Below are positions 900 through 30,560 of a DNA stretch of 64,000 nucleotides, piece after piece. Source of the stretch: Lytechinus pictus. Taxonomy: Eukaryota. The DNA is taken from contig NC_087250.1 in the NCBI RefSeq assembly GCF_037042905.1, positions 21,950,001-22,014,000 of the forward strand, in the 5' to 3' direction. A model generated the notes under the pieces. It was given only the letters and a program-made list of their open reading frames with translations. It made no database searches and was not told the origin of the DNA. Every line of letters begins with the position of its first letter. Position 1 is the first letter of the stretch. A program made the translations under genes and the position numbers.

Positions 900-2765
900 A
901 ACCAAGATCGGAACCGAGATTTATCGATGATTTGTCAAAATTTAATCACAAATACAATAGGCAAATGACCTATCATTGTAAAAACTGAGAGTCTCTTCTT
1001 TTCATTTGAAATAACTTAGATTATTTATCATTCATACATGAGTGACCAAAATTAATTTGAAGAAAGGAAACCAAAAAGTCACTTGGCGGGCGGTATCTGA
1101 GTTTCAAAATATAAATCACATTTTTAAAAAGTTCAATATCTGCTCTTTAATATGATACCTTAATTACAGAAAGCGGTCAAGAAGTAACAAAGTTCTGTTT
1201 ATATGAAAATTCAAATTCAATTATACTCATTCAATAATACTCATCAAAAAATCCGAAGACTAACAATGTGAGTTTACATTTAAAAAAAACGTAAGAGAGA
1301 AATGAATAAATAAACATGCAGTGACCATTAAAGAAGAGAACAAATATATATTATGTTTAAAATGCAATAGTAGCATAACAAGAAATTGGATAAGCAGATG
1401 CAAGTAATGAGACAGATTTAATTTATATATTAAAAGAAAGCAGGTGAGGAGCAGGAAAGGGGAGCAAGCAGGGCAATAGTAAGCATGCACTGTAAAAAAA
1501 AAATAAGGCGCCAACCCAGCACCCACAGCGCCCGTACAGCGACTGCACCACGAGTGCCGATCTTCAGTGTAAATTCAAAATAGAAAATCAGCACCCGTAG
1601 CGCAGCCACCACACAAGCACTGTAAGTGCCAAATTAGCACCTCATCTCATACAGTGTGTGTAAAGGTGAGAAAGGAGAGGGGGATGTAGCAAAAATAAAG
1701 GAAAGAGGGGGAAAAGGAATGAAGGAGCACAACAAAAAAGACCCACAAGTAAACAATAAATTACAGATATTACAAATATTATAAGAATTATTTGTACCAA
1801 AAAAAAACAGAAAAGAAAGTGACATGTTGGTGATCATAAAAGACGAGAGAGTGGGAAAGAGCAAAAGGAAGATAGAGAGAGAGAGGGAGAAAGAGAGAAA
1901 GAGAGAATTAGAAAGATCAGACAGAATCTGAAAAATGACATATCTAATCATAAGTAAACAAGATATTACAAACAAAAAAGGGTAAGCATCAATTATGATT
2001 ACTGGTCAGACACCAAATGAAAGGGAGAAATACAAAATATACCATTAATGATTTGCATTACTGATTTACAATACAACGCTGTCCAAAGTGAGTGAAATAA
2101 GTAGGAGTTTGATGCAATTATGAAAGGAAAGACTATAGAAAAGGAGAAAGAAGCAAGAGAGCAAAAAAGATAGAGAAAGAGATTAAAAAAGAGAAAAAAA
2201 GGGGAAAGGGAGACGGGAAAAGAAAAAATAGATCAAATCTAGTTAGGTAATATTGCACAACAGATACATCAAATGAATAAGGCTTGCATTCCAATAATTT
2301 CATAAAAGGAAGGGGTTTTACTGGATAGCTTTCAGACTTACTCGACATTCCGTTTTGTTGACGATCAGCCATGCATAAAGTCTTATGTTAGCTTAGGTGA
2401 GAAACCGGTGAAAACATGTGTGTTTCATGAAATTATGGAAATACGAACATTGTTTTAAAGAAACATAGCTCTGTTATTTCTTGACAATTTCTGCGATTTA
2501 GCTATCAAATTAAAAAGCAGATATTCACCTTTTTAGGCATGCGATTTTCCTTTTGAAATTTTGATACCCCCCGCCAAATGACTTTTTGCTATCCTTTCTT
2601 CAAATTGTTTTTACTCACTCATGCGTGGATGAGAAATGTCATATGTTATACCATCTGAAAGTAGCGATTCTAAGCTTTACATTGGTAGGTCATTTGTCTA
2701 TTTTATTTGTGATTAAGTTATGATAAATCATCGCTAAACATCGGTTTCGTTTTTTTTACGCACTG
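900..2765. mobile_element. Non-autonomous DNA element with long (~300 bp) diverged TIRs; right end ...CACTG|TA (Tc1/mariner-like terminus)
   Basis: ~910-1200 is an imperfect reverse complement of ~2460-2750 (e.g. AATCACAAATACAATAGGCAAATGACCTA vs TAGGTCATTTGTCTATTTTATTTGTGATT). Confidence 0.65.
1488..1656. mobile_element. Palindromic CACTG...CAGTG MITE, T>C hypermutated (also 3932-4099, 6328-6494, 10340-10506)
   Basis: Collinear with the intact palindromic MITE at 30314-30482. Confidence 0.85.
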
Positions 2766-5700
2766 TATATAAATATATATATATATATGCAGCAATGGAG
2801 ATACACACCTGAAAGTTGACCCTGAGTCAACCGACTTGAAGTCAATTTACTCAGAGTCATGTTCAGGACTTGACATTTTTTCGAGCTCAGAGAGTGTAAT
2901 GCGGGCGGCAACGGAGTGCTATATCACGATTGCAGTTTCTTTCAGTTGATTTTTCTAACATGTTGTCTGTTTTCTTGATAACTGTTCAACTGGTTTGAGT
3001 TATTGCTTGGTTATTCATCTCTATTTGCGTTTCCTGTATTAATTATAATGCCTTAATAACAAAATAATGAGTCTAGATTTGTCATTGTAATGTTCCACGC
3101 AGAGCGATTAATGTGGGGTTGTGGTCGTTTATATTAGAACAGCCACTATACGCACGTGCATAGACCTACTGCGTACTCTGCGGAGCGAGAGCCGATTTTG
3201 AGTAATTGTGTAGTCTTATTCCAGGAATAAATAAATAAGTAAAATAATAATTATAACAATGCTCTAAAATTGTTTGGTTTTGTTTTTGTTGTTCAAACTG
3301 TGGTGTGATATTATGGTTCTACGCTTATTTTCCAAGATTCGTCAATTTTGACATCCAATAAAGTGTACTGACAGTGGCGTAGGCATACTTCTGGTAGGGT
3401 TTGTGTCTTTGTGGGGCGCGCTGCTGTTCCCCCACCCCCCCCCCCCCACCGCCCATCCCCCATATTATTTATCATTCATACATGAGTGACCAAAATTAAT
3501 TTGAAGAAAGGAAACCAAAAAGTCACTTGGCGGGCGGTATCTGAGTTTCAAAATATAAATCACATTTTTTAAAAGTTCAATATCTGCTCTTTAATATGAT
3601 ACCTTAATTACAGAAAGCGGTCAAGAAGTAACAAAGTTCTGTTTATATGAAAATTCAAATTCAATTATACTCATTCAATAATACTCATCAAAAAATCCGA
3701 AGACTAACAATGTGAGTTTACATTTAAAAAAAACGTAAGAGAGAAATGAATAAATAAACATGCAGTGACCATTAAAGAAGAGAACAAATATATATTATGT
3801 TTAAAATGCAATAGTAGCATAACAAGAAATTGGATAAGCAGATGCAAGTAATGAGACAGATTTAATTTATATATTAAAAAAAAGCAGGTGAGGAGCAGGA
3901 AAGGGGAGCAAGCAGGGCAATAGTAAGCATGCACTGTAAAGAAAAATGAAGCGCCAACCCAGCACCCACAGCGCCCGTACAGCGACTGCACCACGAGTGC
4001 CGATCTTCAGTGCAAATTCAAAATAGAAAATCAGCACCCGTAAGGCAGCCACCACACAAGCACTGTAAGTGCCAAATTAGCACCTCATCTCATACAGTGT
4101 GTGTAAAGGTGAGAAAGGAGAGGGGGATGTAGCAAAAATAAAGGAAAGAGGGGGAAAAGGAATGAAGGAGCGCAACAAAAAAGACCCACAAGTAAACAAT
4201 AAATTACAGATATTACAAATATTATAAGAATTATTTGTACCAAAAAAAAACAGAAAAGAAAGTGACATGTTGGTGATCATAAAAGACGAGAGAGTGGGAA
4301 AGAGCAAAAGGAAGATAGAGAGAGAGAGGGAGAAAGAGAGAAAGAGAGAATTAGAAAGATCAGACAGAATCTGAAAAATGACATATCTAATCATAAGTAA
4401 ACAAGATATTACAAACAAAAAAAGGTAAGCATCAATTATGATTACTGGTCAGACACCAAATGAAAGGGAGAAATACAAAATATACCATTAATGATTTGCA
4501 TTACTGATTTACAATACAACGCTGTCCAAAGTGAGTGAAATAAGTAGGAGTTTGATGCAATTATGAAAGGAAAGACTATAGAAAAGGAGAAAGAAGCAAG
4601 AGAGCAAAAAAGATAGAGAAAGAGATTAAAAAAGAGAAAAAAAGGGGAAAGGGAGACGGGAAAAGAAAAAATAGATCAAATCTAGTTAGGTAATATTGCA
4701 CAACAGATACATCAAATGAATAAGGCTTGCATTCCAATAATTTCATAAAAGGAAGGGGTTTTACTGGATAGCTTTCAGACTTACTCGACATTCCGTTTTG
4801 TTGACGATCAGCCATGCATAAAGTCTTATGTTAGCTTAGGTGAGAAACCGGTGAAAACATGTGTGTTTCATGAAATTATGGAAATACGAACATTGTTTTA
4901 AAGAAACATAGCTCTGTTATTTCTTGACAATTTCTGCGATTTAGCTATCAAATTAAAAAGCAGATATTCACCTTTTTAGGCATGCGATTTTCCTTTTGAA
5001 ATTTTGATACCCCCCGCCAAATGACTTTTTGCTATCCTTTCTTCAAATTGTTTTTACTCACTCATGCGTGGATGAGAAATGTCATATGTTATACCATCTG
5101 AAAGTAGCGATTCTAAGCTTTACAATGGTAGGTCATTTGTCTATTTTATTTGTGATTAAGTTATGATAAATCATCGCTAAACATCGGTTTCGTTTTTTTT
5201 ACGCACTGTATATATATATAAATATATATATATATATGCAGCAATGGAGATACACACCTGAAAGTTGACCCTGAGTCAAGCTCAGAGAGTGTACTGCGGG
5301 CGGCAACGGAGTGCTATATCACGATTGCAGTTTCTTTCAGTTGATTTTTCTAACAAGTTGTCTGTTTTCTTGATAACTGTTCAACTGGTTTGAGTTATTG
5401 CTTGGTTATTCATCTCTATTTGCGTTTCCTGTATTAATTATAATGCCTTAATAACAAAATAATGAGTCTAGATTTGTCATTGTAATGTTCCACGCAGAGC
5501 GATTAATGTGGGGTTGTGGTCGTTTATATTAGAACAGCCACTATACGCACGTGCATAGACCTACTGCGTACTCTGCGGAGCGAGAGCCGATTTTGAGTAA
5601 TTGTGTAGTCTTATTCCAGGAATAAATAAATAAGTAAAATAATAATTATAACAATGCTCTAAAATTGTTTGGTTTTGTTTTTGTTGTTCAAACTGTGGTG

Positions 5701-7630
5701 TGATATTATGGTTCGACGCTTATTTTCCAAGATTCGTCAATTTTGACATCCAATAAAGTGTACTGACAGTGGCGTAGGCATACTTCTGGTAGGGTTTGTG
5801 TCTTTGTGGGGCGCGCTGCTGTTCCCCCACCCCCCCCCCCCCCACCGCCCATCCCCCATATTATTTATCATTCATACATGAGTGACCAAAATTAATTTGA
5901 AGAAAGGAAACCAAAAAGTCACTTGGCGGGCGGTATCTGAGTTTCAAAATATAAATCACATTTTTTAAAAGTTCAATATCTGCTCTTTAATATGATACCT
6001 TAATTACAGAAAGCGGTCAAGAAGTAACAAAGTTCTGTTTATATGAAAATTCAAATTCAATTATACTCATTCAATAATACTCATCAAAAAATCCGAAGAC
6101 TAACAATGTGAGTTTACATTTTAAAAAAACGTAAGAGAGAAATGAATAAATAAACATGTAGTGACCATTAAAGAAGAGAACAAATATATATTATGTTTAA
6201 AATGCAATAGTAGCATAACAAGAAATTGGATAAGCAGATGCAAGTAATGAGACAGATTTAATTTATATATTAAAAAAAAGCAGGTGAGGAGCAGGAAAGG
6301 GGAGCAAGCAGGGCAATAGTAAGCATGCACTGTAAAAAAAATGAAGCGCCAACCCAGCACCCACAGCGCCCGTACAGCGACTGCACCACGAGTGCCGATC
6401 TTCAGTGTAAATTCAAAATAGAAAATCAGCACCCGTAGCGCAGCCACCACACAAGCACTGTAAGTGCCAAATTAGCACCTCATCTCATACAGTGTGTGTA
6501 AAGGTGAGAAAGGAGAGGGGGATGTAGCAAAAATAAAGGAAAGAGGGGGAAAAGGAATGAAGGAGCACAACAAAAAAGACCCACAAGTAAACAATAAATT
6601 ACAGATATTACAAATATTATAAGAATTATTTGTACCAAAAAAAAACAGAAAAGAAAGTGACATGTTGGTGATCATAAAAGACGAGAGAGTGGGAAAGAGC
6701 AAAAGGAAGATAGAGAGAGAGAGGGAGAAAGAGAGAAAGAGAGAATTAGAAAGATCAGACAGAATCTGAAAAATGACATATCTAATCATAAGTAAACAAG
6801 ATATTACAAACAAAAAAAGGTAAGCATCAATTATGATTACTGGTCAGACACCAAATGAAAGGGAGAAATACAAAATATACCATTAATGATTTGCATTACT
6901 GATTTACAATACAACGCTGTCCAAAGTGAGTGAAATAAGTAGGAGTTTGATGCAATTATGAAAGGAAAGACTATAGAAAAGGAGAAAGAAGCAAGAGAGC
7001 AAAAAAGATAGAGAAAGAGATTAAAAAAGAGAAAAAAAGGGGAAAGGGAGACGGGAAAAGAAAAAATAGATCAAATCTATTAGGTAATATTGCACAACAG
7101 ATACATCAAATGAATAAGGCTTGCATTCCAATAATTTCATAAAAGGAAGGGGTTTTACTGGATAGCTTTCAGACTTACTCGACATTCCGTTTTGTTGACG
7201 ATCAGCCATGCATAAAGTCTTATGTTAGCTTAGGTGAGAAACCGGTGAAAACATGTGTGTTTCATGAAATTATGGAAATACGAACATTGTTTTAAAGAAA
7301 CATAGCTCTGTTATTTCTTGACAATTTCTGCGATTTAGCTATCAAATTAAAAAGCAGATATTCACCTTTTTAGGCATGCGATTTTCCTTTTGAAATTTTG
7401 ATACCCCCCGCCAAATGACTTTTTGCTATCCTTTCTTCAAATTGTTTTTACCCACTCATGCGTGGATGAGAAATGTCATATGTTATACCATCTGAAAGTA
7501 GCGATTCTAAGCTTTACAATGGTAGGTCATTTGTCTATTTTATTTGTGATTAAGTTATGATAAATCATCGCTAAACATCGGTTTCGTTTTTTTTACGCAC
7601 TGTATATATATATATAAATATATATATATA

Positions 7631-9244
7631 CACTGTTGGTCATAAAGGTGGAATAAAATATTTTTGAATAAAAATCGACAGTTTTGTTGGTATTTGAAAG
7701 GCTACACGTAGACTAAATGGTAATTGAGTGATTACATAATGTTTCCCCATTACACAGGTGACATTATAACATGAGAAATTTTGATTACGTAATAAATTAT
7801 TTTGTTGTAGACTATAAAAGCCTATGCATATGATATTCTGTCCCTTTCCCTGATTTAGCACTGTGTATAAGAAGGTTGCATTTTTTCGAGTTCCTTGTAC
7901 CGTTTGAAATAAAAATCGGTAGAGACGTTCCCTGGACTATGCCTGGTCCAACGGCAACAGCAACACGCGAGAGAGTGGTAGCACTGCGACAGGAGGGCTA
8001 CAAGCAGACTGATACCGCAGAAGTCCTAGGGATATCACAGAGTGCAGTCTCTAAGATCCTGAAACGTCAACGTGAGGCGGGGAATGTGCGGCCACGGAAA
8101 CCTCCAGGACGTCCCAGATTGACCACAAGAAGAGATGATCGCCAACTGTTGAATTTCAGTCGCAGAAACCGGAAATTGCCCAAGAGCCGTCTCCGTCGCT
8201 TGTGGAGGAGATATTATGGGATCAACGTTTCCCGGTCAACCGTTAATCGCAGATCGCTCCAACATGGTAACCGAGCACGACGGTTGACCAAATGTCCACG
8301 CCTGTCTGTTCACCTCAGAGTAGCTCGTCTTCTTTGGGCTAGGGAGCACAGAAGGCTTCATCCAGGACATAAAGGATGGGAGACAACGAGTTCGTCGATT
8401 AGCCGGGGAAAACCTTTGTGATGAATGTATCCACGAGACGACTCAAGTCGGAGGCGGCTCAGTGAAGATATGGGCCGGCATCCATTATGGAGGGAAAACG
8501 CCAATGGTGGTTCCGGACGGAAACGTCAACGCCGCCGCCTACAGGGATATCTTGGAGTTCCACTGTCTTCCATATGCAAGACGAGTGTATGGGCACAATT
8601 TCCGACTGCAGGATGACAACGCTAGACCGCAAAGGGCCGCTGCAGTAAAGGAATTCCTGGAGGCAGAGGGCGTCGTACAGTTGCCATGGCCAGCTTGTTC
8701 GCCGGATATGAACCCCATAGAGCATGCATGGGATGCCCTAGGCCGAGCCATCAACGACAGAGAGGTCATTCCTCAAAATCTGCAGGAGTTGGTAGATGCT
8801 CTGAGGGAAGAATGGGACGCTATGCCTGTTGACGTCATCAACAAGCTAGTGGACAGCATGTAACGACGTCTGCATGCGCTGGTTCGTGCCAGGGGTGGAC
8901 ATACCCGATACTAGTGACTGAGTAAGAACAATGACTCAAGTTTGATGCAAATTTGTCCATGAAATCACAAAAAAAAGTCATCTGGAAAACTGAGAGAGAT
9001 TGAAAAAAAATATCTCATGATCCTTTAACTTACTGTATATTGTCGTCAGTGTTGTTCTATGCTCATGACATCCATCGCTTAGGACATAAACTTGTAAAAC
9101 ATCACTGTCAAACGTGTGTAAAAGGCAGAATTATAAAGTAAAGTGGTTATCATGCACCATAAATGCCATATTCAAATCATGTTGTAATAATTACGCTGAG
9201 AAAATTTGGTGAAAAAAAATATTCCACCTTTATGACCAACAGTG
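7631..9244 (+). mobile_element. Tc1-family (DD34E) transposon, 1614 bp, 25-bp TIRs, TA target
   Basis: TIR CACTGTTGGTCATAAAGGTGGAATA at 7631-7655 and its reverse complement at 9220-9244; flanked by TA; the other array units show the empty site. Confidence 0.96.
7939..8914 (+). pseudogene. Tc1 transposase pseudogene
   Basis: HTH N-terminus, GRPR, QDDNARP...SPDMNPIEH (D-34-E), GGHTRY*. A frameshifting deletion near 8370 removes the first catalytic D (FSDES region); premature TAA at 8861-8863. Confidence 0.92.
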
Positions 9245-11718
9245 TATATGCAGCAATGGAGATACACACCTGAAAGTTGACCCTGAGTCAAGCTCAGAGA
9301 GTGTACTGCGGGCGGCAACGGAGTGCTATATCACGATTGCAGTTTCTTTCAGTTGATTTTTCTAACAAGTTGTCTGTTTTCTTGATAACTGTTCAACTGG
9401 TTTGAGTTATTGCTTGGTTATTCATCTCTATTTGCGTTTCCTGTATTAATTATAATGCCTTAATAACAAAATAATGAGTCTAGATTTGTCATTGTAATGT
9501 TCCACGCAGAGCGATTAATGTGGGGTTGTGGTCGTTTATATTAGAACAGCCACTATACGCACGTGCATAGACCTACTGCGTACTCTGCGGAGCGAGAGCC
9601 GATTTTGAGTAATTGTGTAGTCTTATTCCAGGAATAAATAAATAAGTAAAATAATAATTATAACAATGCTCTAAAATTGTTTGGTTTTGTTTTTGTTGTT
9701 CAAACTGTGGTGTGATATTATGGTTCGACGCTTATTTTCCAAGATTCGTCAATTTTGACATCCAATAAAGTGTACTGACAGTGGCGTAGGCATACTTCTT
9801 GTAGGGTTTGTGTCTTTGTGGGGCGCGCTGCTGTTCCCCCACCCCCCCCCCCCCCACCGCCCATCCCCCATATTATTTATCATTCATACATGAGTGACCA
9901 AAATTAATTTGAAGAAAGGAAACCAAAAAGTCACTTGGCGGGCGGTATCTGAGTTTCAAAATATAAATCACATTTTTTTAAAGTTCAATATCTGCTCTTT
10001 AATATGATACCTTAATTACAGAAAGCGGTCAAGAAGTAACAAAGTTCTGTTTATATGAAAATTCAAATTCAATTATACTCATTCAATAATACTCATCAAA
10101 AAATCCGAAGACTAACAATGTGAGTTTACATTTTAAAAAAACGTAAGAGAGAAATGAATAAATAAACATGTAGTGACCATTAAAGAAGAGAACAAATATA
10201 TATTATGTTTAAAATGCAATAGTAGCATAACAAGAAATTGGATAAGCAGATGCAAGTAATGAGACAGATTTAATTTATATATTAAAAAAAAGCAGGTGAG
10301 GAGCAGGAAAGGGGAGCAAGCAGGGCAATAGTAAGCATGCACTGTAAAAAAAATGAAGCGCCAACCCAGCACCCACAGCGCCCGTACAGCGACTGCACCA
10401 CGAGTGCCGATCTTCAGTGTAAATTCAAAATAGAAAATCAGCACCCGTAGCGCAGCCACCACACAAGCACTGTAAGTGCCAAATTAGCACCTCATCTCAT
10501 ACAGTGTGTGTAAAGGTGAGAAAGGAGAGGGGGATGTAGCAAAAATAAAGGAAAGAGGGGGAAAAGGAATGAAGGAGCACAACAAAAAAGACCCACAAGT
10601 AAACAATAAATTACAGATATTACAAATATTATAAGAATTATTTGTACCAAAAAAAAACAGAAAAGAAAGTGACATGTTGGTGATCATAAAAGACGAGAGA
10701 GTGGGAAAGAGCAAAAGGAAGATAGAGAGAGAGAGGGAGAAAGAGAGAAAGAGAGAATTAGAAAGATCAGACAGAATCTGAAAAATGACATATCTAATCA
10801 TAAGTAAACAAGATATTACAAACAAAAAAAGGTAAGCATCAATTATGATTACTGGTCAGACACCAAATGAAAGGGAGAAATACAAAATATACCATTAATG
10901 ATTTGCATTACTGATTTACAATACAACGCTGTCCAAAGTGAGTGAAATAAGTAGGAGTTTGATGCAATTATGAAAGGAAAGACTATAGAAAAGGAGAAAG
11001 AAGCAAGAGAGCAAAAAAGATAGAGAAAGAGATTAAAAAAGAGAAAAAAAGGGGAAAGGGAGACGGGAAAAGAAAAAATAGATCAAATCTAGTTAGGTAA
11101 TATTGCACAACAGATACATCAAATGAATAAGGCTTGCATTCCAATAATTTCATAAAAGGAATGGTTTTACTGGATAGCTTTCAGACTAATACTCGACATT
11201 CCGTTTTGTTGACAATCAGCCATGCATAAAGTCTTAGTCTTTTGTTAGCTTAGGTGTTTCATGAAATTATGGAAATTCGAACATTATTTTGAAGAAACAT
11301 AGTTCTGTTATTTCTTGACAATTTCTGCGATTTAGCTATCAAATTAAAAAGCAGATATTCACCTTTTTTGGCATGCGATTTTCTTTTTGAAATTTTGATA
11401 CCCCCCGCCAAATGACTTTCTGCTATCCTTTCTTCAAATTAGTTTTCACTCACTCATGCGTGGATGAGAAATCTCATATGTTATACCATCTGAAAGAAGC
11501 GATTCTAAGCTTTACAATAGTAGGTCATTTGTCTATTTGTCTATTTGTCTATCATCGCTGAACCTCGGTTTCGTTTTTTGTGGAACGCACTGTATATATA
11601 TATATATATAAAAGAAGAGGGCCCTTTGCATAACGTGTATTACAGCGCGTCATGTTCTATGTACACTTGTAAATAATTCAGCATCAACGCAAGACGTAGC
11701 TTCCATGTATCTCTTTAT

Positions 11719-17410: not shown

Positions 17411-17556
17411 AGTACTAGAGGACGCAGCTAAGGAGCCTACGCTGACCTATGAAAACTACCTAAACATCGAGAAGCTCCTGTCTTGCTTACAACTTCGATC
17501 CCCGAAATTCGGCAAATCTGAGCACGACGAACACCTTTTTATTACAGTGCACCAAG
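17411..17556 (+). CDS. TDO2: TDO exon 2 (VLEDAAKEPTLTYENYLNIEKLLSCLQLRSPKFGKSEHDEHLFITVHQ)
   Basis: YxxYL and HDEHLFIxxHQ motifs; acceptor gacag, donor G|gtac. Confidence 0.93.
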
Positions 17557-17685
17557 GTACAAGACAACGAACGTAGAGGGCAGCCAGCACCGGCAAAGTG
17601 CTGCCGCCCTCTCGTTCGTTGATGCTGGATTTATCGAATACTTCATTACTTAACTTTGATATGCGCGTCAATGATTAATATCATT

Positions 17686-17904
17686 CACAGTAAAAAAAAA
17701 TTATACAACGCTGTTTACTATACGAACCTTACAGCAATTGTTTAAAAATTTTAAACAACTGTTTAAGTCTTAAGCAACAAAGTTTAATTTTCAATATCTA
17801 ATTTTCAATAAATTAAACAAAATTGTTTAAACGGTTAAACAAATACTGTAAGGTTCATATAGTAAACAGCGTTGTATTAAATCTTAAACAGTGGTTTTAC
17901 TGTG
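17686..17904. mobile_element. Palindromic CACAG...CTGTG MITE
   Basis: Inverted arms ATACAACGCTGTTTACTATA / TATAGTAAACAGCGTTGTAT. Confidence 0.7.
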
Positions 17905-18189
17905 TTGAACTCTATTTTCATCGTAATCATTATCATGTTTAAAATATTCTCTATGGTGGACATCGATACTGTTTCCATGACTTACGATATTCTTGTTATG
18001 ATTAATGTTAGGCGACTAGCGTTGCAAATCTTTGAGTTTTAGGTTTGATTTAATTTTGTATTATCACCATCATCGTTGTCATTATCAATATTGTCACACT
18101 CATCATGATCATAGTAGGGCCTATATACGTCGAGATCTTGGCAAAGTTTTATTGTCGGTATTATTATTATACTTATTACCATGATCATC

Positions 18190-18485
18190 ATTGTTATTTT
18201 TCTATTAGAATTTGTATCAATATTATTATTTGCATTGTTATTATTATTTGTATTATTATTATCATTATTATTATTATTACTATTATTAATATCATTATAA
18301 TAATCACTATTATTATTGTTGCTGCTATTATCATAATTGTTATCATCATCATTATCATCATTTTTATTTTCATCATTATTATTTTTATTATTATTACTAT
18401 TGTTATTATAATTATAATTACTATTATTATTGTTTCTGCTATCATTATTATTGTTATCATCATCATTATTATTATTATTATTTAA
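18190..18485. repeat. Degenerate (ATT)n microsatellite
   Basis: Direct inspection. Confidence 0.9.
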
Positions 18486-21027
18486 TTGTTATTTGTATTG
18501 GTCTGGATGTTAAAGTAGGGTTTTTCATGGGGAGGGGATTAAAACTCTACTTTATGCACCACTTTGGTTTACTTTGAGAAAATGAATGCAGGAATGGAAA
18601 GGTGTCAGTGTACTTTTCGGTTGAACTTTAGAAATATGAAATTATCTATCCTGGCACTATTCACAATAAAAGTGTTTTTCCCATAGTCAATAAATCACAA
18701 ATACGCTATATTATGTATATTTTTATTGTATACCCCCGACAAGCAAACTGCCAGTAGACAGATCGAATCAATAAAAAACTTTCTTCAAGAGAGATTTCCT
18801 ATCTATGTATTTTGATAATTAACTCGAAACTTAAGGACCTTATTGGAATTGAAAAAAAATTAAACTCACCAGTTATACACCAAAATACAACGTGGACGGT
18901 TTAATGCAATTTTACAACTTACCAGCTTAGTATTTGTTAACCGGTTGAATGCTGAATTATGCAATTTGTATAGGTTTTGTACAGGGATTACCCTGTTCTA
19001 GATGTGAACTGGTTAAATAATAGTACATAGTATTTATCAGGCGCCAATTATCTATAATATCATATTCCATGGCACATTATATTACGAAGAAACGTTCCTA
19101 ATGTAAACATAACAAATGGGTGTCATCCATAGGTGAGGATTCTCTGACGTCATCTTATGTGGATGAAGCTGTAGTTGGATACGTTTGCACGTAGAAAAGT
19201 CACATCATTTTCCTTTATCCCATTACATATACAGACATTATGCAAAGGAAATGTCTTTGGACTTACTAAGTGTTTAAATCAGGGTTAACCCATACTTTTA
19301 CACCATTCTTTTTATTTACTTCTTTGGCTTTGCCTCCTATTTGGCCATAGGTGCTATGTCAGGCAAACGCGTTACTAAATGCAGATTCAGGTAATACGTG
19401 GAATAAGCAGCAAATAAAACTGCGCCAACCTCAAGTTCTACAGCTTTGGGTTTATCAATGTAGGCAAGAAATACTCGAAATGTTAGCTTTCAGTACCTAT
19501 TGGCCTTGCAAATGTAAGATTTAGAAACAATAGCACGACCAATCTTGTCTACTTACAAACGCATGTCACCTCAACTCCGATCACATAGGATGACGTCATA
19601 ATCATTCATGTCGTTGAGAGACACAATGAGGGCCACACTCGAGACTCGCGAAATTGGGTTTTTGTTGCGCCATAAATCTTAATGTTACTTGTCATGTTGG
19701 ATGTTGCAATTATAAAGATTTACATTCATTCCCAACCCATACTTAAAATTAAAAGAAAAATAAACATGCACGAAATGCTCCTGGCTTAAAGCCGGGAAAA
19801 CATTGCTATGTATAAACATTGCTCTGTACTCTGAGAAATGACTGGAATAGCCGTAGAGCTAGCAAATTTAGGTTTTCATCTAGGTTATCGTGCTTGTATG
19901 ACGTTACCAAAGACATCTTTGAAAGATGCCCACGGTAAATATTACCACTTGGTATTACCCTCAGTTCCACCAACTTCATGATTATGGTCTAAACCCATTT
20001 CGTTTACCAATTACCATGCGTTCGTTTTTCCTCATCCAATTCGTCTAATAAGCCATGTCGTTCCTAGTTCCATTTTGCGCATGGTCAGAAGAACGTCACG
20101 TGAACGCATGTCTTGACCTGTTGTCAAATGTTTGCATATATAGTATTAAGTCAAAATAAATTTTGTTAATAACCCTTCAGTTTACCGGCCATTCTGCATC
20201 CCGTGTGACGTCATCTTCAAAAATAATTTTAAAATTCGGAAAGCATTCCCAAGGCTCTGGGGACATTTTTCTTTGGGTGTGCTGATGCAAATTTGAAGCG
20301 CACAAAACGAAAATGTTTCACTACAAAATGGAGATGAACTGGGTCCCGAGAAATTTGAAAACAAAAAAAAAGGCAAAAAAGGGTTTTCACTTCAAAATGG
20401 AGATCAATTTGGTCCAGAAAAATTAAGGCCATTTTGGTAATATTTCTTTTTTTTTTATAATACACGCAGTGAGCACCCCCCCCCCAAGAAAAAGGGGGTG
20501 GAACACCCCCCACTCCCCAGGGCCATCATTATTTGCAATTCATTACTAATCAGCGTTTTCGACAAAATACCAATGCAGTAATAATAATGATTAGCTTTTG
20601 CCAATTTTAGCCATTGAATGACAATCTTTGATGCTCCGAACCAAGGAAATCATTGGGTTTTAGGAATCGCAACGGGTGACGGATTCTACAACATAATAAA
20701 TATATAATGTTAGTCAAATCACAAGGAACAGCTTAAAGGTCTTTGTCGAAAATCGGTGAACCGTGACAGATCGTTCTAAGATTAGTAGCTGACAAAAAAA
20801 GATGAAAACATGCCGTGAGTCCAGGATGACACCGCTGTTTTGATTCGCCGACTCTCGACAAATGCTGCATGTCATAAAGGGTTTTTTGACAATATATTAT
20901 TTACGTTCAATAAAATGTCTGCCTAGTGGTTGCAAGAACGCCCCAATAATAAGATATTGCTCTGGCCCTACTGACTATGTATAATTTACCACATTGCCCC
21001 GATTACTTTTAATATTTCTTTCAATAG

Positions 21028-21161
21028 CTCACGAACTTTGGTTCCGGCAAATGATTTTCGAAGTCGATTCCATCCGAGCTACCTTACGTGAAAGGCCATT
21101 TGATGAAACCAAGATGCTGTATGTGAACAACAGGATGGATCGGATTATCCTAATCTTAAAG
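21028..21161 (+). CDS. TDO2: TDO exon 3 (AHELWFRQMIFEVDSIR...RIILILK)
   Basis: ELWF-Q motif; AG/GT boundaries; phase consistent. Confidence 0.93.
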
Positions 21162-21477
21162 GTAAAATAGTATTGGATTAAATAAATTCCATATCGTTAA
21201 GAGAGATAATAATGGTAACGAATTAAATGCAAGCTAATGCTGACATTTTGCACATGAGTACAATTATATCCAACAATCTTACTTAGTAGTTTTCTTACAT
21301 GCTAGAAAAGGTAATACATGACCAAAGTTTGGATAAATATACAATTATCAGTATCAATGGTTCAACATGGGAATCTAGAATAAAAGGAAGCAGACAGTCA
21401 TTTTTATTTAGACCGCTTGCCTCGTGATGAGACCGTTTATTAAAACAAAAAAGCACTTTCTCTTTTCTTTCATATAG

Positions 21478-21747
<270 letters not shown>

Positions 21748-21864
21748 TAAAAATCGGAAAATCCAATTCGAGTTGCATAATGATAATACCAAACGTCTAC
21801 TTACAATGTTGCTATTTAGGTCCAAAGGGAACTAGCTGTGGTTTATATATTGCTGTGACCCCAA

Positions 21865-22560
21865 GATAGTGATGGAAGGTCATCTAGGGGACAAAAAGTT
21901 AAATGATATGAGGTCATGTTCAGTTTTTGTTCAACTTGCTTTCATTTCTTTGATTTTATCACACTTGATTAAAATAATTCTTTTGCAATGCCCCATGTGT
22001 GTTGTTGAGGATTTTGGGGTCAAATGTCATCTAGAGGTCAAAAGGTCAAGTTTTTTGTTCAAATTGCTCTTTTTTCCAATCAGTCATTTTCACTCGTGGT
22101 ACACATGATCCTTGGGAAATACCACAAGTGCGTTAATGAGGATGATGCTGTCAAAGGTCATATAGGGGTCAAAAGGACAAGTTTAGTTCAAATTGTTCTC
22201 ATTTTCTTTCTCTGCATCATTTCTATATTTCTGCATCAGTTATGGTCACACTTGATACAAATGATCCTTGGGTAATACCACATTATGTGTTCATGAGGAT
22301 GATGGGGTCAAAGGTCATCTAGGGGTCAAACGGTCAAGTTTTATTCAATCTGCTCTCATTTCTTCAATTCTGCATCACTTGTATAAATGATCACTAGGTA
22401 ATACCACATGTGTGTCCATCCTTTCCAAGTTTTTCTTCAACCTGCTCTCATTTCTTTTTATCTGCATAAATCGTATTTTAGTCGGTACAAATTATCTTTG
22501 GTAATACCACTCGCGTGTTCTTGAGGATGGATAGGTCAAAGACCATCGAGGGATCAAAAG
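21865..22560 (+). repeat. Diverged tandem repeat with GGTCATCTAGGGGTCAAA and GGTAATACCAC motifs
   Basis: Motifs recur about five times at ~115-150 bp spacing. Confidence 0.7.
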
Positions 22561-22706
22561 ATTATATTGCATATTTTATTGATCGCGAAAGCAGACGCGA
22601 CTCGTGGTTCTCTCTTACTTTTTATTTTCTTTCTCTATTTCTTTTTCTTTCTTTGATTCTTTCTTTATATTTATATCTCTCTCCATCTTTGTTTATTTCT
22701 TTCCAG

Positions 22707-22817
22707 GATGACCGTATCCCATACATGAGGGAGGAATACCTAACGAAGTGCAATCCTGACAAAAAACAAGACATTCTCAACGCCTTGGATGAGGATACAC
22801 TCTTCCAGATTGTAGAG
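22707..22817 (+). CDS. TDO2: TDO exon 5 (DDRIPYMREEYL...TLFQIVE)
   Basis: Aligns to the RVPY...TLLELVE segment of TDO; ttccag acceptor, GT donor. Confidence 0.9.
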
Positions 22818-23454
22818 GTTTCATTTTTAACTTTCGCAATCAATATATTTAACGATTTTCTACTTGGTGTAGTATCGTTCATAAATGGGTTTTTTCACAA
22901 ATTAGAAGGCACAGGGCCCGTATCTTGAACTCAGGTTTAATGTAAACTCTGGTGTAAAATTGCAGTTTAACTGTTAAAGGGGAAGATCACCCTGACAAAA
23001 CGTTTATTGTCAAAATAACAAACAAAATATTAAAATATATTGCCAAACGTTCGAGAAAAATCCACCAAAAAATAAAGATGTTGTTAAGATTTTAGTAACT
23101 TGATCTGTGACGTCACATGCAAGCCGCTTTTCTACATATCGTATGGTAACGATAAAACTCCATGAAATGTCATTTTCTTTAAAAGAAAATGCAAATGGCT
23201 ATAAAGTACTTTGAATTCAGTATATCAATAGAAACATAATTTCACTCCCGTTTCTAAAAAGTAAACAAAAATAAGTCATCATGAACCATTAAAATTGAAA
23301 TTTAGGCATTTCATAATGGGACAGTCGTTCGTTTATAAAGAGGTCACAAATTGTGTATTCTCCTTCATTTCTTTTCTTGTTTCTTCTGATTCCTTTTTCT
23401 TTGTTTGTATATTGTTATTATTTTTGTCATTTTTTTATTATTATTATTACATTA

Positions 23455-24290
<836 letters not shown>

Positions 24291-24419
24291 TAGGAATATT
24301 GAGCACGCCATGTAATGCAGCATCTACCGTGTTTGAATAAAATGACTCGCTCGCACAAACCATTCGCATGTATCTGGGTTACGGACAGGCCTAAGCGCCC
24401 GTAACAATGCCCAGTTATT

Positions 24420-24944
24420 CAGAAGCGGATCTAGAGGGGGGTTGGGGGGGTTGCAACCCCCCCCAAAAAAAAAAAAAAAATCCGGGGACCATTTTTTTAA
24501 ATCTTATCTTTTTTTTTAAACTTGTAATTTTATTTTATTCTATTTCTATGTATTTATTTCATTTATTATTATTATTATTATTATTATTTCTTTTTGGGGG
24601 AGGGGGGGGGGGGGGGGTTGGGCGAACAAATGTCACAGAGTCCCTTACCCCCCCCCCCCCCCATCAGCTTTTTTGAGGACACGGGCCAAGTGACAAGCTA
24701 GGCCAGCGTTGCCGATTCTCATCCCCAAAATCCCCACATTAAAAAAAAAAATTGTTGAAGTCTTTGGGGATGAAAAATAAATATTTGGGAATGATTTTCA
24801 AAAATTTTCCCTACTCTGGGAGGGGGGACACCCCCCTCCCACACCCTCCCCCCTCGCTCGCTCTGCTCGCTTGGACTCGGTCGCTACGCTCCCTCGCATA
24901 CCACCCCAACCCCCCCCCTTTATAAAAAGCTGGATCCGCCCCTG
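24420..24944. mobile_element. Non-autonomous element with GCGGATC...GATCCGC termini and G/C runs
   Basis: CAGAAGCGGATCTAG / CTGGATCCGCCCCTG; no clean TSD. Confidence 0.55.
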
Positions 24945-25013
24945 TTATTAGTTATTCTTCTTTATACATATTAATTATTCCCAACCCTATATCTTGATTA
25001 TTATGAATCCTAG

Positions 25014-25121
25014 CGGTGGCTGGAACAGACACATGGATTGGAGGAAGATGGATTCAATTTTTGGAAGAGATTCGGAGAGAAGGTAGAAGAACGCCTCAGT
25101 GATATCAAGGCTAGAGAAGAG
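25014..25121 (+). CDS. TDO2: TDO exon 6 (RWLEQTHGLEEDGFNFWKRF...)
   Basis: Aligns to WLERTPGLE..GFNFW; gtgagt donor. Confidence 0.92.
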
Positions 25122-26127
25122 GTGAGTGGTTCCACATTCATGATAATAGTTGTAATATTATATCTGGTTACCCGTACTATCATTTTCGCAGGAATGTCCG
25201 AGTAACTCTGTTTAGACGGGCACTACTCCGATCAAGATAAATATATTTGGAATTTTAATGCATGCATAATAGAAATTTACTCCGACTAGGATCTTAATGG
25301 GGTGTTGCAAAAAACTTGCGATCAATTGCAAGTCTATTTTAGGTCCCTAAATCAATCATATGTAATATAGTTAATTGCAAATTTGTAATTGATGGCTAAT
25401 ATAAGCTCCTTGAAACAAGATGTTTAATCTGATTTGCTATAGCTAACGTTGATCTGTCAGTTGTAAAATTGCGACAGAATATTTGCAATTGATTGCAAAT
25501 ATTTTCTTGCAACACCTTCTTAGTCTGATCAAGTCTTGTGTTTAAGTTGAAGATCATAATTAGAATCTTTGTAGCTAGCCAAGGGTTAGAATGATTCCAA
25601 ACCAATATAGTAAGAGATAATGAAATACCTGACCAAAATATCATTATACAACTGTAATTGGTGGATTTTGTTTATTTATCGTGTTGGTCAAGTACATGAT
25701 CATAAGCAAGTTTTCGTTTCTCTGCGACTGCAACGTAGTCCAAGTTCACCGGAAGTGGTGACATCGCTCGTTCAGTATCACGTTCTTACAATGATTAAAA
25801 CGGTTTCGATTTCAGTCGACGTACCCGTACCAGGCGCGAGCGTAGAGCTCCCAAAATTCCTTCATCTCGCACGTCCTCATGGCTCGTCGCAGAAAACGAA
25901 AGGTCTCTATTGTTAATACCAATATTTCTAAAGCGCTTAATACATTTTATTTCTAAGCGCTAGATACATAGACAAAAATAAGTTAATGATGATAACTGCT
26001 GACAATTAAGGGATGGAGGTAGTAAAATACAAAATAACATGACGCAATCCTACACAAAGTAAAACAGATGAGAGTAGTGTCGATAAATATATATTTAGAT
26101 TTTTTTTATTGATAAAATATTTGATAG

Positions 26128-26236
26128 GTGGCCGATGCTGATCAAAAGCCTGTATTAAAGAAGGAGCTCGATGTATGCAAGGATATCTTTCAGAAAGTTC
26201 TCAACGAAGATGAATATAAGAAACTGCTGGCAAGAA
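26128..26236 (+). CDS. TDO2: TDO exon 7 (VADADQKPVLKKELDVCKDIFQKVLNEDEYKKLLAR)
   Basis: Open frame, AG/GT boundaries; phase 0 to 1 bridges exons 6 and 8; resembles the helical segment before GERRLS. Confidence 0.85.
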
Positions 26237-26774
26237 GTATGTCTCAAATACATAAATGTATATAATATGCATGATATGTATGTGTGTGTTTGTGAGGGTG
26301 TGTGTGTGCGCGATAGTGTGTGCGGGTGTGTGGTTATGTGTAAAAACATTATTATTCTTACTATTTTTATAATGTATTATTCTTATGTATAAGTATCATC
26401 ATTATTTATTATGATTATTATATTATTTTTTTTTCATTAATTATATTTTAATTTATTACCTTTATCATTCGTTATTATTAACATTATTTTTATCATTACT
26501 ATTATTATTGTTATCATTATTATTATTAATTACCAATCTATTTCGAGAATATTATTTCATTATCTAACGAGATATTTTCTGTAAACATTAAAAAGAATCG
26601 CAAGTTATCATCAATGAGCAAGTTTTGTTGTTATCGTTGGTTTCTTTGTTAGCCGCAATTTAGCGCAATTTTCCCTAGTTATTACAGATGGTCGATGACG
26701 GTACAATAGACTTTAAAGACGGAGAGGGGATGTGGAAGTAAGGAGAGAGCGGGTCCGTGAGGGGCAGACCGATA

Positions 26775-26995
<221 letters not shown>

Positions 26996-27040
26996 GAAAG
27001 AATAAGAGAGAGAGATGAGATGGGACGAAAAGGCATTTGA

Positions 27041-27220
<180 letters not shown>

Positions 27221-28016
27221 TGAATATAAATCTTTTTAACTGTATAAATAATATTTTCATATGTTTCACTATGTGAACACACGGTGATTGCCCCCTGTGG
27301 CACTTTGTTCTTTCAAACAGGGAACTTTCTTATTTTACTTTTGTTTTTCTTTCTTTTCGTGGAATTCAATTAACATGACCAAGTGCTCCATAGTCTGTCA
27401 ATATGTTCGCATTGTGTCCTCGGGGCCCCGTCTTGCAAAGAGTTACGATTGATCCGATCAATCTACTCTCAAGTATATTAAAATCCACCAATGTCATAAT
27501 TTTGTTCTTTAGGGAATGTGCACAGAAGAGAAGCATACTGAATTGCCAAATAAACAGTGAATGTATGAATATACTTCATATCGAGATAATATTTTAAACA
27601 AGCATGTATTTCAGATGTTGACGTTGCTGAATTCAATGGTTGTGGTTGATTAGATCGATCGTATCTCTTTGTAAGACGGGGCACAGTTGTGCATTTTCAC
27701 TTTTGTCCGGTATCATATTTATGTCAATACACTCTGAACTCAAACATACATACATCGTCGATGCGTCTACATTGCAAACGTTATATTCACACTGTTGAAT
27801 TAGAGCGTGTGATCAATATAATCACAAATTAATTAAGTATACGATGAGAACACACCCTGTTCCACCATTTTCTCTAATCTTATTTCTTCCCCTTATTCCC
27901 TCATTTTTACTCATCTTATACCCTTGACTTGAACATTAAGAGGGGCGGTCCGCCCCTTGCCCCATGTATCACATCCCCCACCTCTATATTTTGTTGTGAT
28001 AAATATGTAGCGCTAA

Positions 28017-28352
<336 letters not shown>

Positions 28353-28999
28353 TAATTTATATACATGTATATATACGTATATGTTCATCATTGACGTCAT
28401 AGAATCGAAGATTTTCTTCTAGTGGGCGTTTCATTTTCAACATTATCGCAAAATAGTGAGAATATGATTGGTCACATGATGCTATTTAAACCAATCAACA
28501 TACAGGATTGAGTATAATTTATGTAGGATATAAAGTAATATTGTACACTATTATGTATCAATACCGCCTTTACATATCCATATTACCTTGAAAGGATGTT
28601 TCTCAGTGCTTAACAAATGTATTAGCATATTATTACCCCGGATTTCAGATTTTGGCATGGCCGCAAACTTTGAATAGGCCTTAACTTTCTCCACTCCGTG
28701 GGGGCATTATAGTGAAAGACATAATGATAACACATTATGTATCAGGGACTTCGACATAGCAAAAGCTTGTAAAATTTTTATTTTGTTTGTTTTCTCAAAT
28801 TTTCGACTGTTTTTGTCGACGAGAACCATTCACCAAAGGTAATCCCCAAACTAAAGTACTGAGTTGTATGAGTCCGTGAACTTGCGGGATGGACAATGGA
28901 AAAAGCGAAGTGTACGTGTACCTTCTTGGTGCAATATATAAAACAGCATAACAAATGATTCACAATAGAATATTATTTATCATTTTTTTCTCTCCTCAG

Positions 29000-29861: not shown

Positions 29862-30560
29862 TCAGGACCCCGTTGCATTCGTGTTAAGACAACTTGCGAA
29901 ATTCTTTTCAAGGTAAAATACATTGACATGACATGTCGATTTCAAATCATTCTGAACGCAAACTCCAAGTAGTTTCATGAACTGGACTTCGGATAGTTTC
30001 TGGCCTTCGAGTTCAACAGTGGGATTTGGTGGACTTATTCTCATGAAGCTAATATGCATGACAGCACATTCACTCGTGCTAAGTCTCACGCTGTAATCCT
30101 TAGACCACTGCTGAAACTCATCCGCACTCTTCTGGATGGTGGCAGGGTCGCTAGTTTTCCTGCTTTCTAGTACTGAGAGATCATCTACGTATTTCCAATG
30201 AGGATTAGCACTCTGCTGTTATGCACAATTGACCAAGCAAAGGAAAATAAGCGGGCCTAAACGAGTTCCCTGCGGGGCACCAGCTTGTATGTTCTTCAAC
30301 CCTGAGACTACTACACTGTAAAAAAAAATGAAGTGCTAGTTTAGCATTTGCAGTGCTTGCATAGTGACTGCACTACGAGTGCTGATTTTCTAGTTGAAAT
30401 TTAAACTAAAAAATCAGTACTCGTAGTGCACTCACTATACAAGCACTGTAAGTGCTACATTAGCACTTCATTTTTTACAGTGTAATCTGTACTAAACACA
30501 CTGCTTTCGGTCTTTCAAGAAGTTGAATATCTATGCAACTAATGTTGAACATTCATGTCT
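29862..30560 (-). mobile_element. Decayed non-LTR retrotransposon (CR1/L2-like) RT fragment
   Basis: Minus-strand translation gives AGAPQGTRLGPLIFL, HWKYVDDL and KLLGVCVQNDL. Confidence 0.85.
30314..30482. mobile_element. 169-bp palindromic MITE, CACTG...CAGTG ends, TA TSD, inserted in the LINE fragment
   Basis: Self-complementary arms; TA on both sides. Confidence 0.9.

Follow-up and report, generated by a model that had tools for sequence, protein, structure and literature searches.

The window analysed here is a 64,000-nucleotide stretch of the Lytechinus pictus genome (positions 21,950,001 to 22,014,000 of contig NC_087250.1, assembly GCF_037042905.1), and near its left end lies a tandem array of four units, each holding a fragment of a long interspersed nuclear element (LINE) with a miniature inverted-repeat transposable element (MITE) inside it. 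The MITE belongs to a family of almost perfect palindromes, and in all four units it is hypermutated in the same way: close to half of its T have become C, a pattern that reads as A>G on the minus strand. Our analyses argue that the changes are probably the work of an RNA-editing deaminase on the hairpin of a LINE transcript, made heritable when that transcript was retrotransposed. An earlier reading of the sequence alone, hereafter the sequence-only reading, had singled out these copies as a case of ADAR-like hyperediting, and all four of its coordinates hold. From start to start the copies are 2443, 2395 and 4012 nucleotides apart, and identity between the units is 92–100% across the repeat families, mostly 96–100%. 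The features on which the argument depends are the following, with substitutions counted against the family consensus described below:

985–11540, no strand assigned: tandem array of four units of about 2.4 kb, each with a LINE fragment and its MITE
1488–1656, minus strand: hypermutated MITE, tandem copy 1 (25 T>C among 31 substitutions)
3932–4099, minus strand: hypermutated MITE, tandem copy 2 (24 T>C among 29 substitutions)
6328–6494, minus strand: hypermutated MITE, tandem copy 3 (25 T>C among 29 substitutions)
10340–10506, minus strand: hypermutated MITE, tandem copy 4 (25 T>C among 29 substitutions; partly covered by DNA contigs of other runs)
3651–4716, minus strand: 5'-truncated LINE 3' untranslated region (3'UTR) fragment hosting the MITE in unit 2
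1207–2273, 6047–7110 and 10059–11105, minus strand: equivalent LINE 3'UTR fragments of the other units
30314–30482, no strand assigned: ordinary palindromic copy of the same MITE family, the reference of the sequence-only reading

The MITE family is abundant in this 812-Mb genome. A first search returned 1074 candidates, 40 of which were scored, and a degenerate 25-mer of one MITE arm has 712 matches on the two strands in a whole-genome count, with more than 350 copies in all. In place of the single intact copy at 30314–30482 we used a consensus of 43 distinct copies, at least 88% identical to the reference and drawn from 56 loci after removal of duplicates; these are the best-scoring matches, and the sample is hence biased toward well-kept copies. 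The consensus is 166 bp long, an almost perfect palindrome with the ends CACTGT...ACAGTG, and TA flanks most of the 43 copies. Terminal inverted repeats, small size and a TA duplication in most copies are the features of a Tc1/mariner-type MITE, the exceptions being the window copy and the MITE of a second lineage, L035, which are flanked by a TG duplication instead of TA.

Measured against this genome-wide consensus, the excess that the sequence-only reading had seen by eye—some 25 T>C changes in the first copy, few others and no excess of A>G, recurring at 3932, 6328 and 10340—stays in place: T>C makes up 25 of the 31 substitutions in the copy at 1488 and 24 or 25 of the 29 in each of the others, and A>G on the plus strand accounts for 0 or 1 per copy. 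The copy at 30314–30482 has 9 substitutions, one of them T>C, while among the 43 ordinary copies the median is 4 and the spectrum mixed, with maxima of 4 T>C and 3 A>G in any copy. The changes strike both arms of the MITE, the edited consensus positions spanning 9–62 and 96–149, and as had been described they all lie on one strand and break the palindrome; an element able to form a hairpin has, in short, been hypermutated from A to G on the minus strand only.

Just as distinctive is where the changes stop. Comparison of the window flanks with the majority of five MITE-free copies of the host family, over 790 columns, gave 64 substitutions of mixed types and a single T>C among 135 T, against 25 of 53 T changed inside the MITE (Fisher P = 3e-15). 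The confinement to the hairpin that the sequence-only reading had wanted to see examined is thus real, and whatever caused the changes worked on the hairpin only. Because the T>C excess halts at the MITE ends, error-prone copying of the whole LINE is not an explanation: a sloppy polymerase or reverse transcriptase running along the entire element is ruled out by the confinement together with the spectrum.

The host of the MITE had been taken for a DNA-transposon-like element, and the question whether the region 1260–2330 is instead a retroelement tail had been raised at the same time. A search for further copies settles this: the host is a 5'-truncated LINE 3'UTR, and its sense strand is the minus strand of the window, the very strand that carries the A>G changes. 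The identification follows from a constant 3' end, variable 5' ends and same-strand RVT_1 frames in longer copies. One end is constant at 3651–3653 in 32 of the 36 non-self matches (query 12–15), and the other varies (617–619, 558, 420, 399, 330, 297, 253, 183). On the minus strand, the family shares the 3' end ...TTGAATTTGAATTT, with AATAAA shortly ahead of it in most copies. Other copies of the family reach further 5' than the window copy, and three of them (L076, L077 and L075) have RVT_1 frames upstream on the same strand, with E-values from 1e-13 to 9e-15. The other window-host copies also preserve the empty site, GCATG^TGAAAAGG, where the window has GCATG-MITE-TGTG... with a 2-bp duplication.

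The event is less singular than the sequence-only reading had supposed, as three other lineages of the same MITE have been changed likewise. Genome-wide we find at least eleven hypermutated copies in four lineages, on five chromosomes. In addition to the window array, there are L032 and L033 (both on C8, L032 at 25.60 Mb, 77 kb apart; 23 changes), L034 (C8; 24 changes) and its paralogue on C5, and L035 (C17) with its siblings L055 (C8) and a copy on C15, the first two of these with 21 changes each. The three other lineages have 21–24 one-strand changes and 0–3 of the mirror type. Demanding at least three of five hot A>G changes within one 25-mer retrieved only 10 arms from the whole genome (four in the window, two on C8, one each on C8 and C5, and one each on C8 and C17), and these are the arms of the window copies, L032, L033, L034 and its C5 paralogue, L035 and L055. 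The mirror pattern, in a whole-genome count, returned the same lineages and one doubtful match, and the control pattern of at least three of five G>A changes in the same 25-mer was found in 0 copies genome-wide. A pattern census of this kind misses decayed copies: the eleventh copy, the sibling of L035 on C15, has a 10-bp deletion and escaped it, and was found through its flank.

The lineages resemble each other also in which adenosines have changed. Each is edited at 21–25 of the 54 A of the consensus, and of these A, all four lineages have G at 10, three lineages at another 10, two at 8 and a single lineage at 7, while 19 are G in none. Any two lineages have 15–19 edited sites in common, where 8.9–11.1 would be expected (P from 4e-6 to 8e-3). 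Since all four possible three-way sharing patterns occur, no tree accounts for the distribution of the edited sites. The window copy and L032 have 19 edited sites in common, 4 of them exclusive to these two, and not one non-transition change. The overlapping hot spots point to repeated events with a preference for certain sites and not to one diverged subfamily.

Of the other three lineages, two can be shown to ride in LINEs, again with the A>G changes on the sense strand of the LINE. In L035, a 461-aa RVT_1 frame (E = 6e-35) extends on the A>G strand as far as the MITE, and the downstream flank, made up of the 671 bp that follow the MITE, belongs to a family of 597 candidates: 39 of the 40 main scored matches end at query 667–671, with starts from 1 to 338, and AATAAA lies 14 nt ahead of the end. 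Its sibling L055 has the same edits and a different 5' end, beginning only 70 bp before the MITE; the C15 copy has the same edits and a second small palindromic insertion, an unrelated element of about 155 bp nested in its MITE (L079, C15:13846000–13846300, about 83–240). Two more diverged copies of the L035 family hold the empty site, AAATC-TG-TGCTTTC, and BLAST found no relationship between the L035 host unit and that of the window. In L034, the A>G strand has a 340-aa frame with the LINE ORF2 endonuclease domain (Exo_endo_phos) 0.5 kb downstream. Its C5 sibling has the same downstream flank and starts inside the MITE, as a 5'-truncated retrocopy would; the two show 17 differences, 11 of them A/G at a consensus A. 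Overall, 3/3 lineages whose host could be read have their edits on the sense strand of the LINE. Of the 4 hypermutated lineages, 2 have reverse transcriptase or endonuclease frames of at least 120 aa within 1.5 kb; of the 42 ordinary loci, 2 do as well, one of them with a frame below the Pfam cut-off (Fisher P = 0.033).

That the C alleles are present in the animals, as well as in the assembly, is borne out by DNA contigs of other sequencing runs, which carry them over the parts covered. A 186-nt contig of run X1 spans 10291–10474 with no differing letter, although this run may be the sample behind the assembly. Runs X2 and X6, which come from two studies and bear another organism label, have contigs over 10385–10600 with 15 and 9 differing letters; no listed difference reverts a C, and both contigs carry an extra T>C at 10420. 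If these contigs come from a sister species, the event predates the species split. The contigs with the X2 and X6 labels hold, over 10419–10600, the same hypermutated MITE arm together with its LINE flank. A 91-nt contig of run X8 falls exactly on 10464–10554; it may be DNA, and we draw no inference from it. Within the assembly itself, the four tandem copies combine their common T>C changes with private differences.

The MITE is a plausible substrate for an enzyme acting on double-stranded RNA (dsRNA). Folded computationally as RNA, the unedited element makes a single stem of -135 kcal/mol (z = -25.6). By the same kind of computation the copy at 6328–6494 still reaches -113.6 kcal/mol as minus-strand RNA and only -43.8 as plus-strand RNA, the minus-strand fold being retained because A>G turns A-U into G.U. 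Hyperediting by ADAR can affect up to about half of the adenosines of a duplex. A candidate enzyme is encoded in the genome, where PF02137, the ADAR-type deaminase domain, has exon-level matches at 4 places (best E = 1e-56) that could be ADAR, ADAD or ADAT1. Among the features that might govern the choice of site, the strongest is the position along the stem: on average, adenosines in the GC-richer core of the arms have been edited in 2.81 of 4 lineages, those of the ends and of the AT-rich centre in 0.71.

We thus favour, with a probability of roughly 0.7, ADAR-type hyperediting of the MITE hairpin within a LINE transcript, made permanent by ordinary retrotransposition and followed by tandem amplification. 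The case for hyperediting and LINE insertion is that the changes are A>G on one strand, strike both arms, affect about 40–46% of the A, keep to the duplex and agree with the LINE sense strand in 3/3 readable lineages. The history would begin with a palindromic Tc1/mariner-like MITE of about 166 bp landing inside the UTR of LINE (non-LTR) retrotransposons. In the LINE sense transcript, the MITE would fold into a stem of about 80 bp, in which ADAR would convert some 40–46% of the MITE adenosines to inosine, mostly in the GC-richer core of each arm. The LINE reverse transcriptase would read inosine as G and the copy would be inserted into the genome, so that the sense strand of the LINE, and that strand only, would keep a fossil trace of A>G limited to the hairpin. 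One copy made in this way would lie in the window as a 5'-truncated LINE 3'UTR on the minus strand; a 2.4-kb segment that included it later underwent four-fold tandem amplification, and in the last step a Tc1-like transposon (7631–9244, described below) would have hit one unit.

Much of what the sequence-only reading had proposed is retained in this scheme. The editing of a minus-strand RNA and its subsequent reverse transcription agree with the one-strand A>G on that strand, and a passage through RNA is supported; the tandem amplification is evident from the four units, and as all four share the edits, the hypermutation predates it. The special route by which the edited RNA was thought to be written back into the genome can be dispensed with, the edited strand being the LINE sense strand: no exotic write-back is required, because ordinary LINE retrotransposition provides the reverse transcription. 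The identity of the deaminase and the arrival of the window copy itself are matters of greater doubt than the pattern of changes. The deaminase was probably ADAR, and the window copy, judging by analogy and from the orientation of its edits, is likely to have come by retrotransposition and not to have been changed in place.

Several observations weigh against this explanation. ADAR hyperediting disfavours G 5' of the edited A, according to PMC8586724, and in our four lineages no such rule is visible, the edited fraction being 0.42 after A, 0.46 after C, 0.45 after G and 0.47 after T. With only 5 of the 54 consensus A preceded by G, the comparison has low power, but these are edited in 9 of 20 cells, as often as the rest, and two such sites in the core are edited in 4/4 lineages. 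The sequence-only reading had counted about 2 of 25 edited sites with a 5' G; the count is right, and given the 5 of 54 it has no discriminating power. On the 3' side, ADAR favours neighbours in the order G>C>A>U. The pooled edited fractions follow this order (G 0.62, C 0.52, A 0.37, T 0.23; P = 0.02 for G/C vs A/T), but within the core it vanishes (Kruskal–Wallis P = 0.67), and the AT-richness of the ends and centre confounds it.

Other difficulties concern the hosts. L032 and L033 bear no sign of a LINE, and Pfam scans of the frames around L032 gave nothing; a 472-aa URGCP-like frame (E = 2e-68; L083 1–1416, minus strand, C8:25598040–25599455) lies about 2 kb from L032 on the opposite strand. 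The window lineage has no sibling LINE copy outside the array in the pattern census, and no unedited MITE sits at the same LINE site among the scored matches of the window host. Finally, in the two LINE-borne insertions whose empty site is known, the duplication is TG, at TGTG, in a family that usually has TA, possibly owing to an unusual target choice or to a junction made by microhomology. The TG...TG pairs lie at 3930–3931 and 4100–4101 in the window and at 1499–1500 and 1667–1668 in L035. As for the pair on C8, L032 and L033 are parts of a 95.7% identical duplication of at least 2.2 kb, its copies 77 kb apart; L032, like L034, has TA duplications.

Some of these difficulties would disappear if the MITE had been changed in place, a transcript of the locus being edited and the RNA or its cDNA then being used as a template when the fragile palindrome underwent repair or gene conversion. 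Such a course would suit a window lineage without siblings outside its array, a MITE that has its own 2-bp duplication within the LINE fragment and an empty site in other copies of the family, and the absence of LINE context in L032 and L033. It demands, however, an unproven repair route, and it has little to say about two other lineages that are plainly LINE-borne, with siblings, or about an edited strand that is the LINE sense strand in all three readable lineages; we regard it as unlikely. More improbable still is an ordinary MITE subfamily in which the C alleles are diagnostic and were spread by DNA transposition. The intact termini, the TA duplications of L032 and L034, and the sites common to the window copy and L032 leave room for some transposase-driven spread of a changed copy. 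The large subfamily carrying the C alleles that the sequence-only reading had named among the outcomes that would refute its claim was looked for, and what was found is four lineages only vs 712 arm matches. Its diagnostic changes would, moreover, all be one-strand A>G that break the palindrome and are shared in a way that fits no tree; the window copy and L032 share no non-transition change, and the origin of the bias would be left unexplained.

We give equally little credence to a DNA-level process acting at palindromes, such as error-prone synthesis over an extruded hairpin that places G opposite T. The damage is limited to the palindrome and the ADAR neighbour motif is not visible, as such a process would have it, but more than 350 other palindromic copies are untouched, and the affected ones are enriched in LINEs with a strand that matches the LINE sense. 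We know of no DNA process that alters about 45% of the A on one strand over 140 nt. An artefact of assembly or sequencing, on the other hand, hardly deserves consideration, and nothing was found in its favour: the changes are common to four tandem copies that have private differences besides, the C alleles stand, over the parts covered, in contigs of runs from three studies, and eleven copies on five chromosomes have the same pattern.

A further idea, which builds on hyperediting of LINE RNA and which we put forward tentatively, is that editing acts as a filter. The weakened stem would let the reverse transcriptase pass an 80-bp hairpin and may escape dsRNA processing, and edits may accumulate over rounds at reproducible positions. 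There are two hints in this direction: every LINE-borne, retrotransposed copy that we have seen is hypermutated, and L034 and its C5 sibling differ mainly by A/G at consensus A (11/17). If the idea is true, the fossils would naturally document, for a single defined substrate, which sites ADAR chooses in the germline.

The proposed route is already known in outline. Knisbacher and Levanon (2015, Ann N Y Acad Sci) reportedly described genomic A-to-G clusters that come from ADAR editing of retrotransposon RNA before retrotransposition. By the title of that paper, the principle is the same: the dsRNA part of a retroelement transcript is edited, inosine is read as G, and the one-strand A>G becomes heritable. 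What differs is the substrate, here the intramolecular hairpin of a DNA-transposon MITE nested in a LINE UTR, and the control, as many unedited palindromic copies provide an internal reference and the same hairpin was struck at least four times with reproducible hot spots. One-strand A>G clusters, high density and dependence on a duplex are found also where ADAR hyperedits long perfect dsRNA or the genomes of RNA viruses (PMC8586724); the 5' G rule is not visible in our case, and the record is in chromosomal DNA, not in viral RNA.

Deaminase marks frozen in retroelements and endogenous retroviruses are familiar also from APOBEC-type hypermutation, with its G>A or C>T changes. Our copies share with these the freezing of a deaminase mark into retroelement copies, but the base change is the wrong one (0 copies in the G>A control) and the APOBEC mark is not hairpin-confined. 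Compared with Stowaway-like or Tc1-mariner MITEs, the family itself is ordinary, a palindrome of about 166 bp with CACTGT...ACAGTG ends, mostly TA flanks and more than 350 copies; only LINE-borne copies are hypermutated, L032 and L033 lacking the LINE signs. A 2016 review states that the part ADAR editing plays in how Alu subfamilies evolved had "not yet been determined" (PMC4982230). The listings and abstract openings returned by a full-text literature search contained no report of hypermutated MITE copies fixed in a genome. With a DNA-transposon hairpin in LINE UTRs, an internal consensus and four replicate events, the case is a particularly clear example of a known route.

This clarity is what gives the array its value. 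It offers a clean, internally controlled case of RNA editing turned into heritable DNA change, in which the unedited copies supply the starting sequence, the LINE flanks serve as a control on the same molecule, and four independent events on one hairpin reveal the preferred adenosines. It also shows a route by which the palindrome of a DNA transposon becomes a stable non-palindrome. For annotation, the consequence is that such copies should not be named a new MITE subfamily.

The array has one more resident, which accounts for its uneven spacing:

7631–9244, plus strand: Tc1-like DNA transposon with HTH_Tnp_Tc3_2 and DDE_3 frames, in two reading frames

The element has perfect 30-bp terminal inverted repeats beginning CACTGT and TA on both flanks, and it interrupts a (TA)n stretch in the third tandem unit. 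It entered the array after the amplification, and the third interval is the longer one (4012) because the transposon inserted there. Its ends open with CACTGT, the same hexamer as those of the MITE, and given this common hexamer a relative of the transposon may mobilise the MITE family. In every unit, the LINE fragment is bracketed by inverted repeats of about 185 bp with 77–78% identity (3467–3652 and 4896–5080 in unit 2); a sequence related to these repeats occurs at C8:18.796 Mb.

The neighbouring genes encode tryptophan 2,3-dioxygenase (TDO) and play no part in the process. The TDO exons at 17433–28361 are on the plus strand and the array is intergenic, lying between TDO paralogues, in line with the remark of the sequence-only reading that the edited RNA was not TDO pre-mRNA. 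TDO is present as tandem paralogues, with PF03301 exon matches at C6:21.89, 21.95, 21.97 and 22.10 Mb and a further copy on C5; another TDO copy ends about 2 kb ahead of the window on C6.

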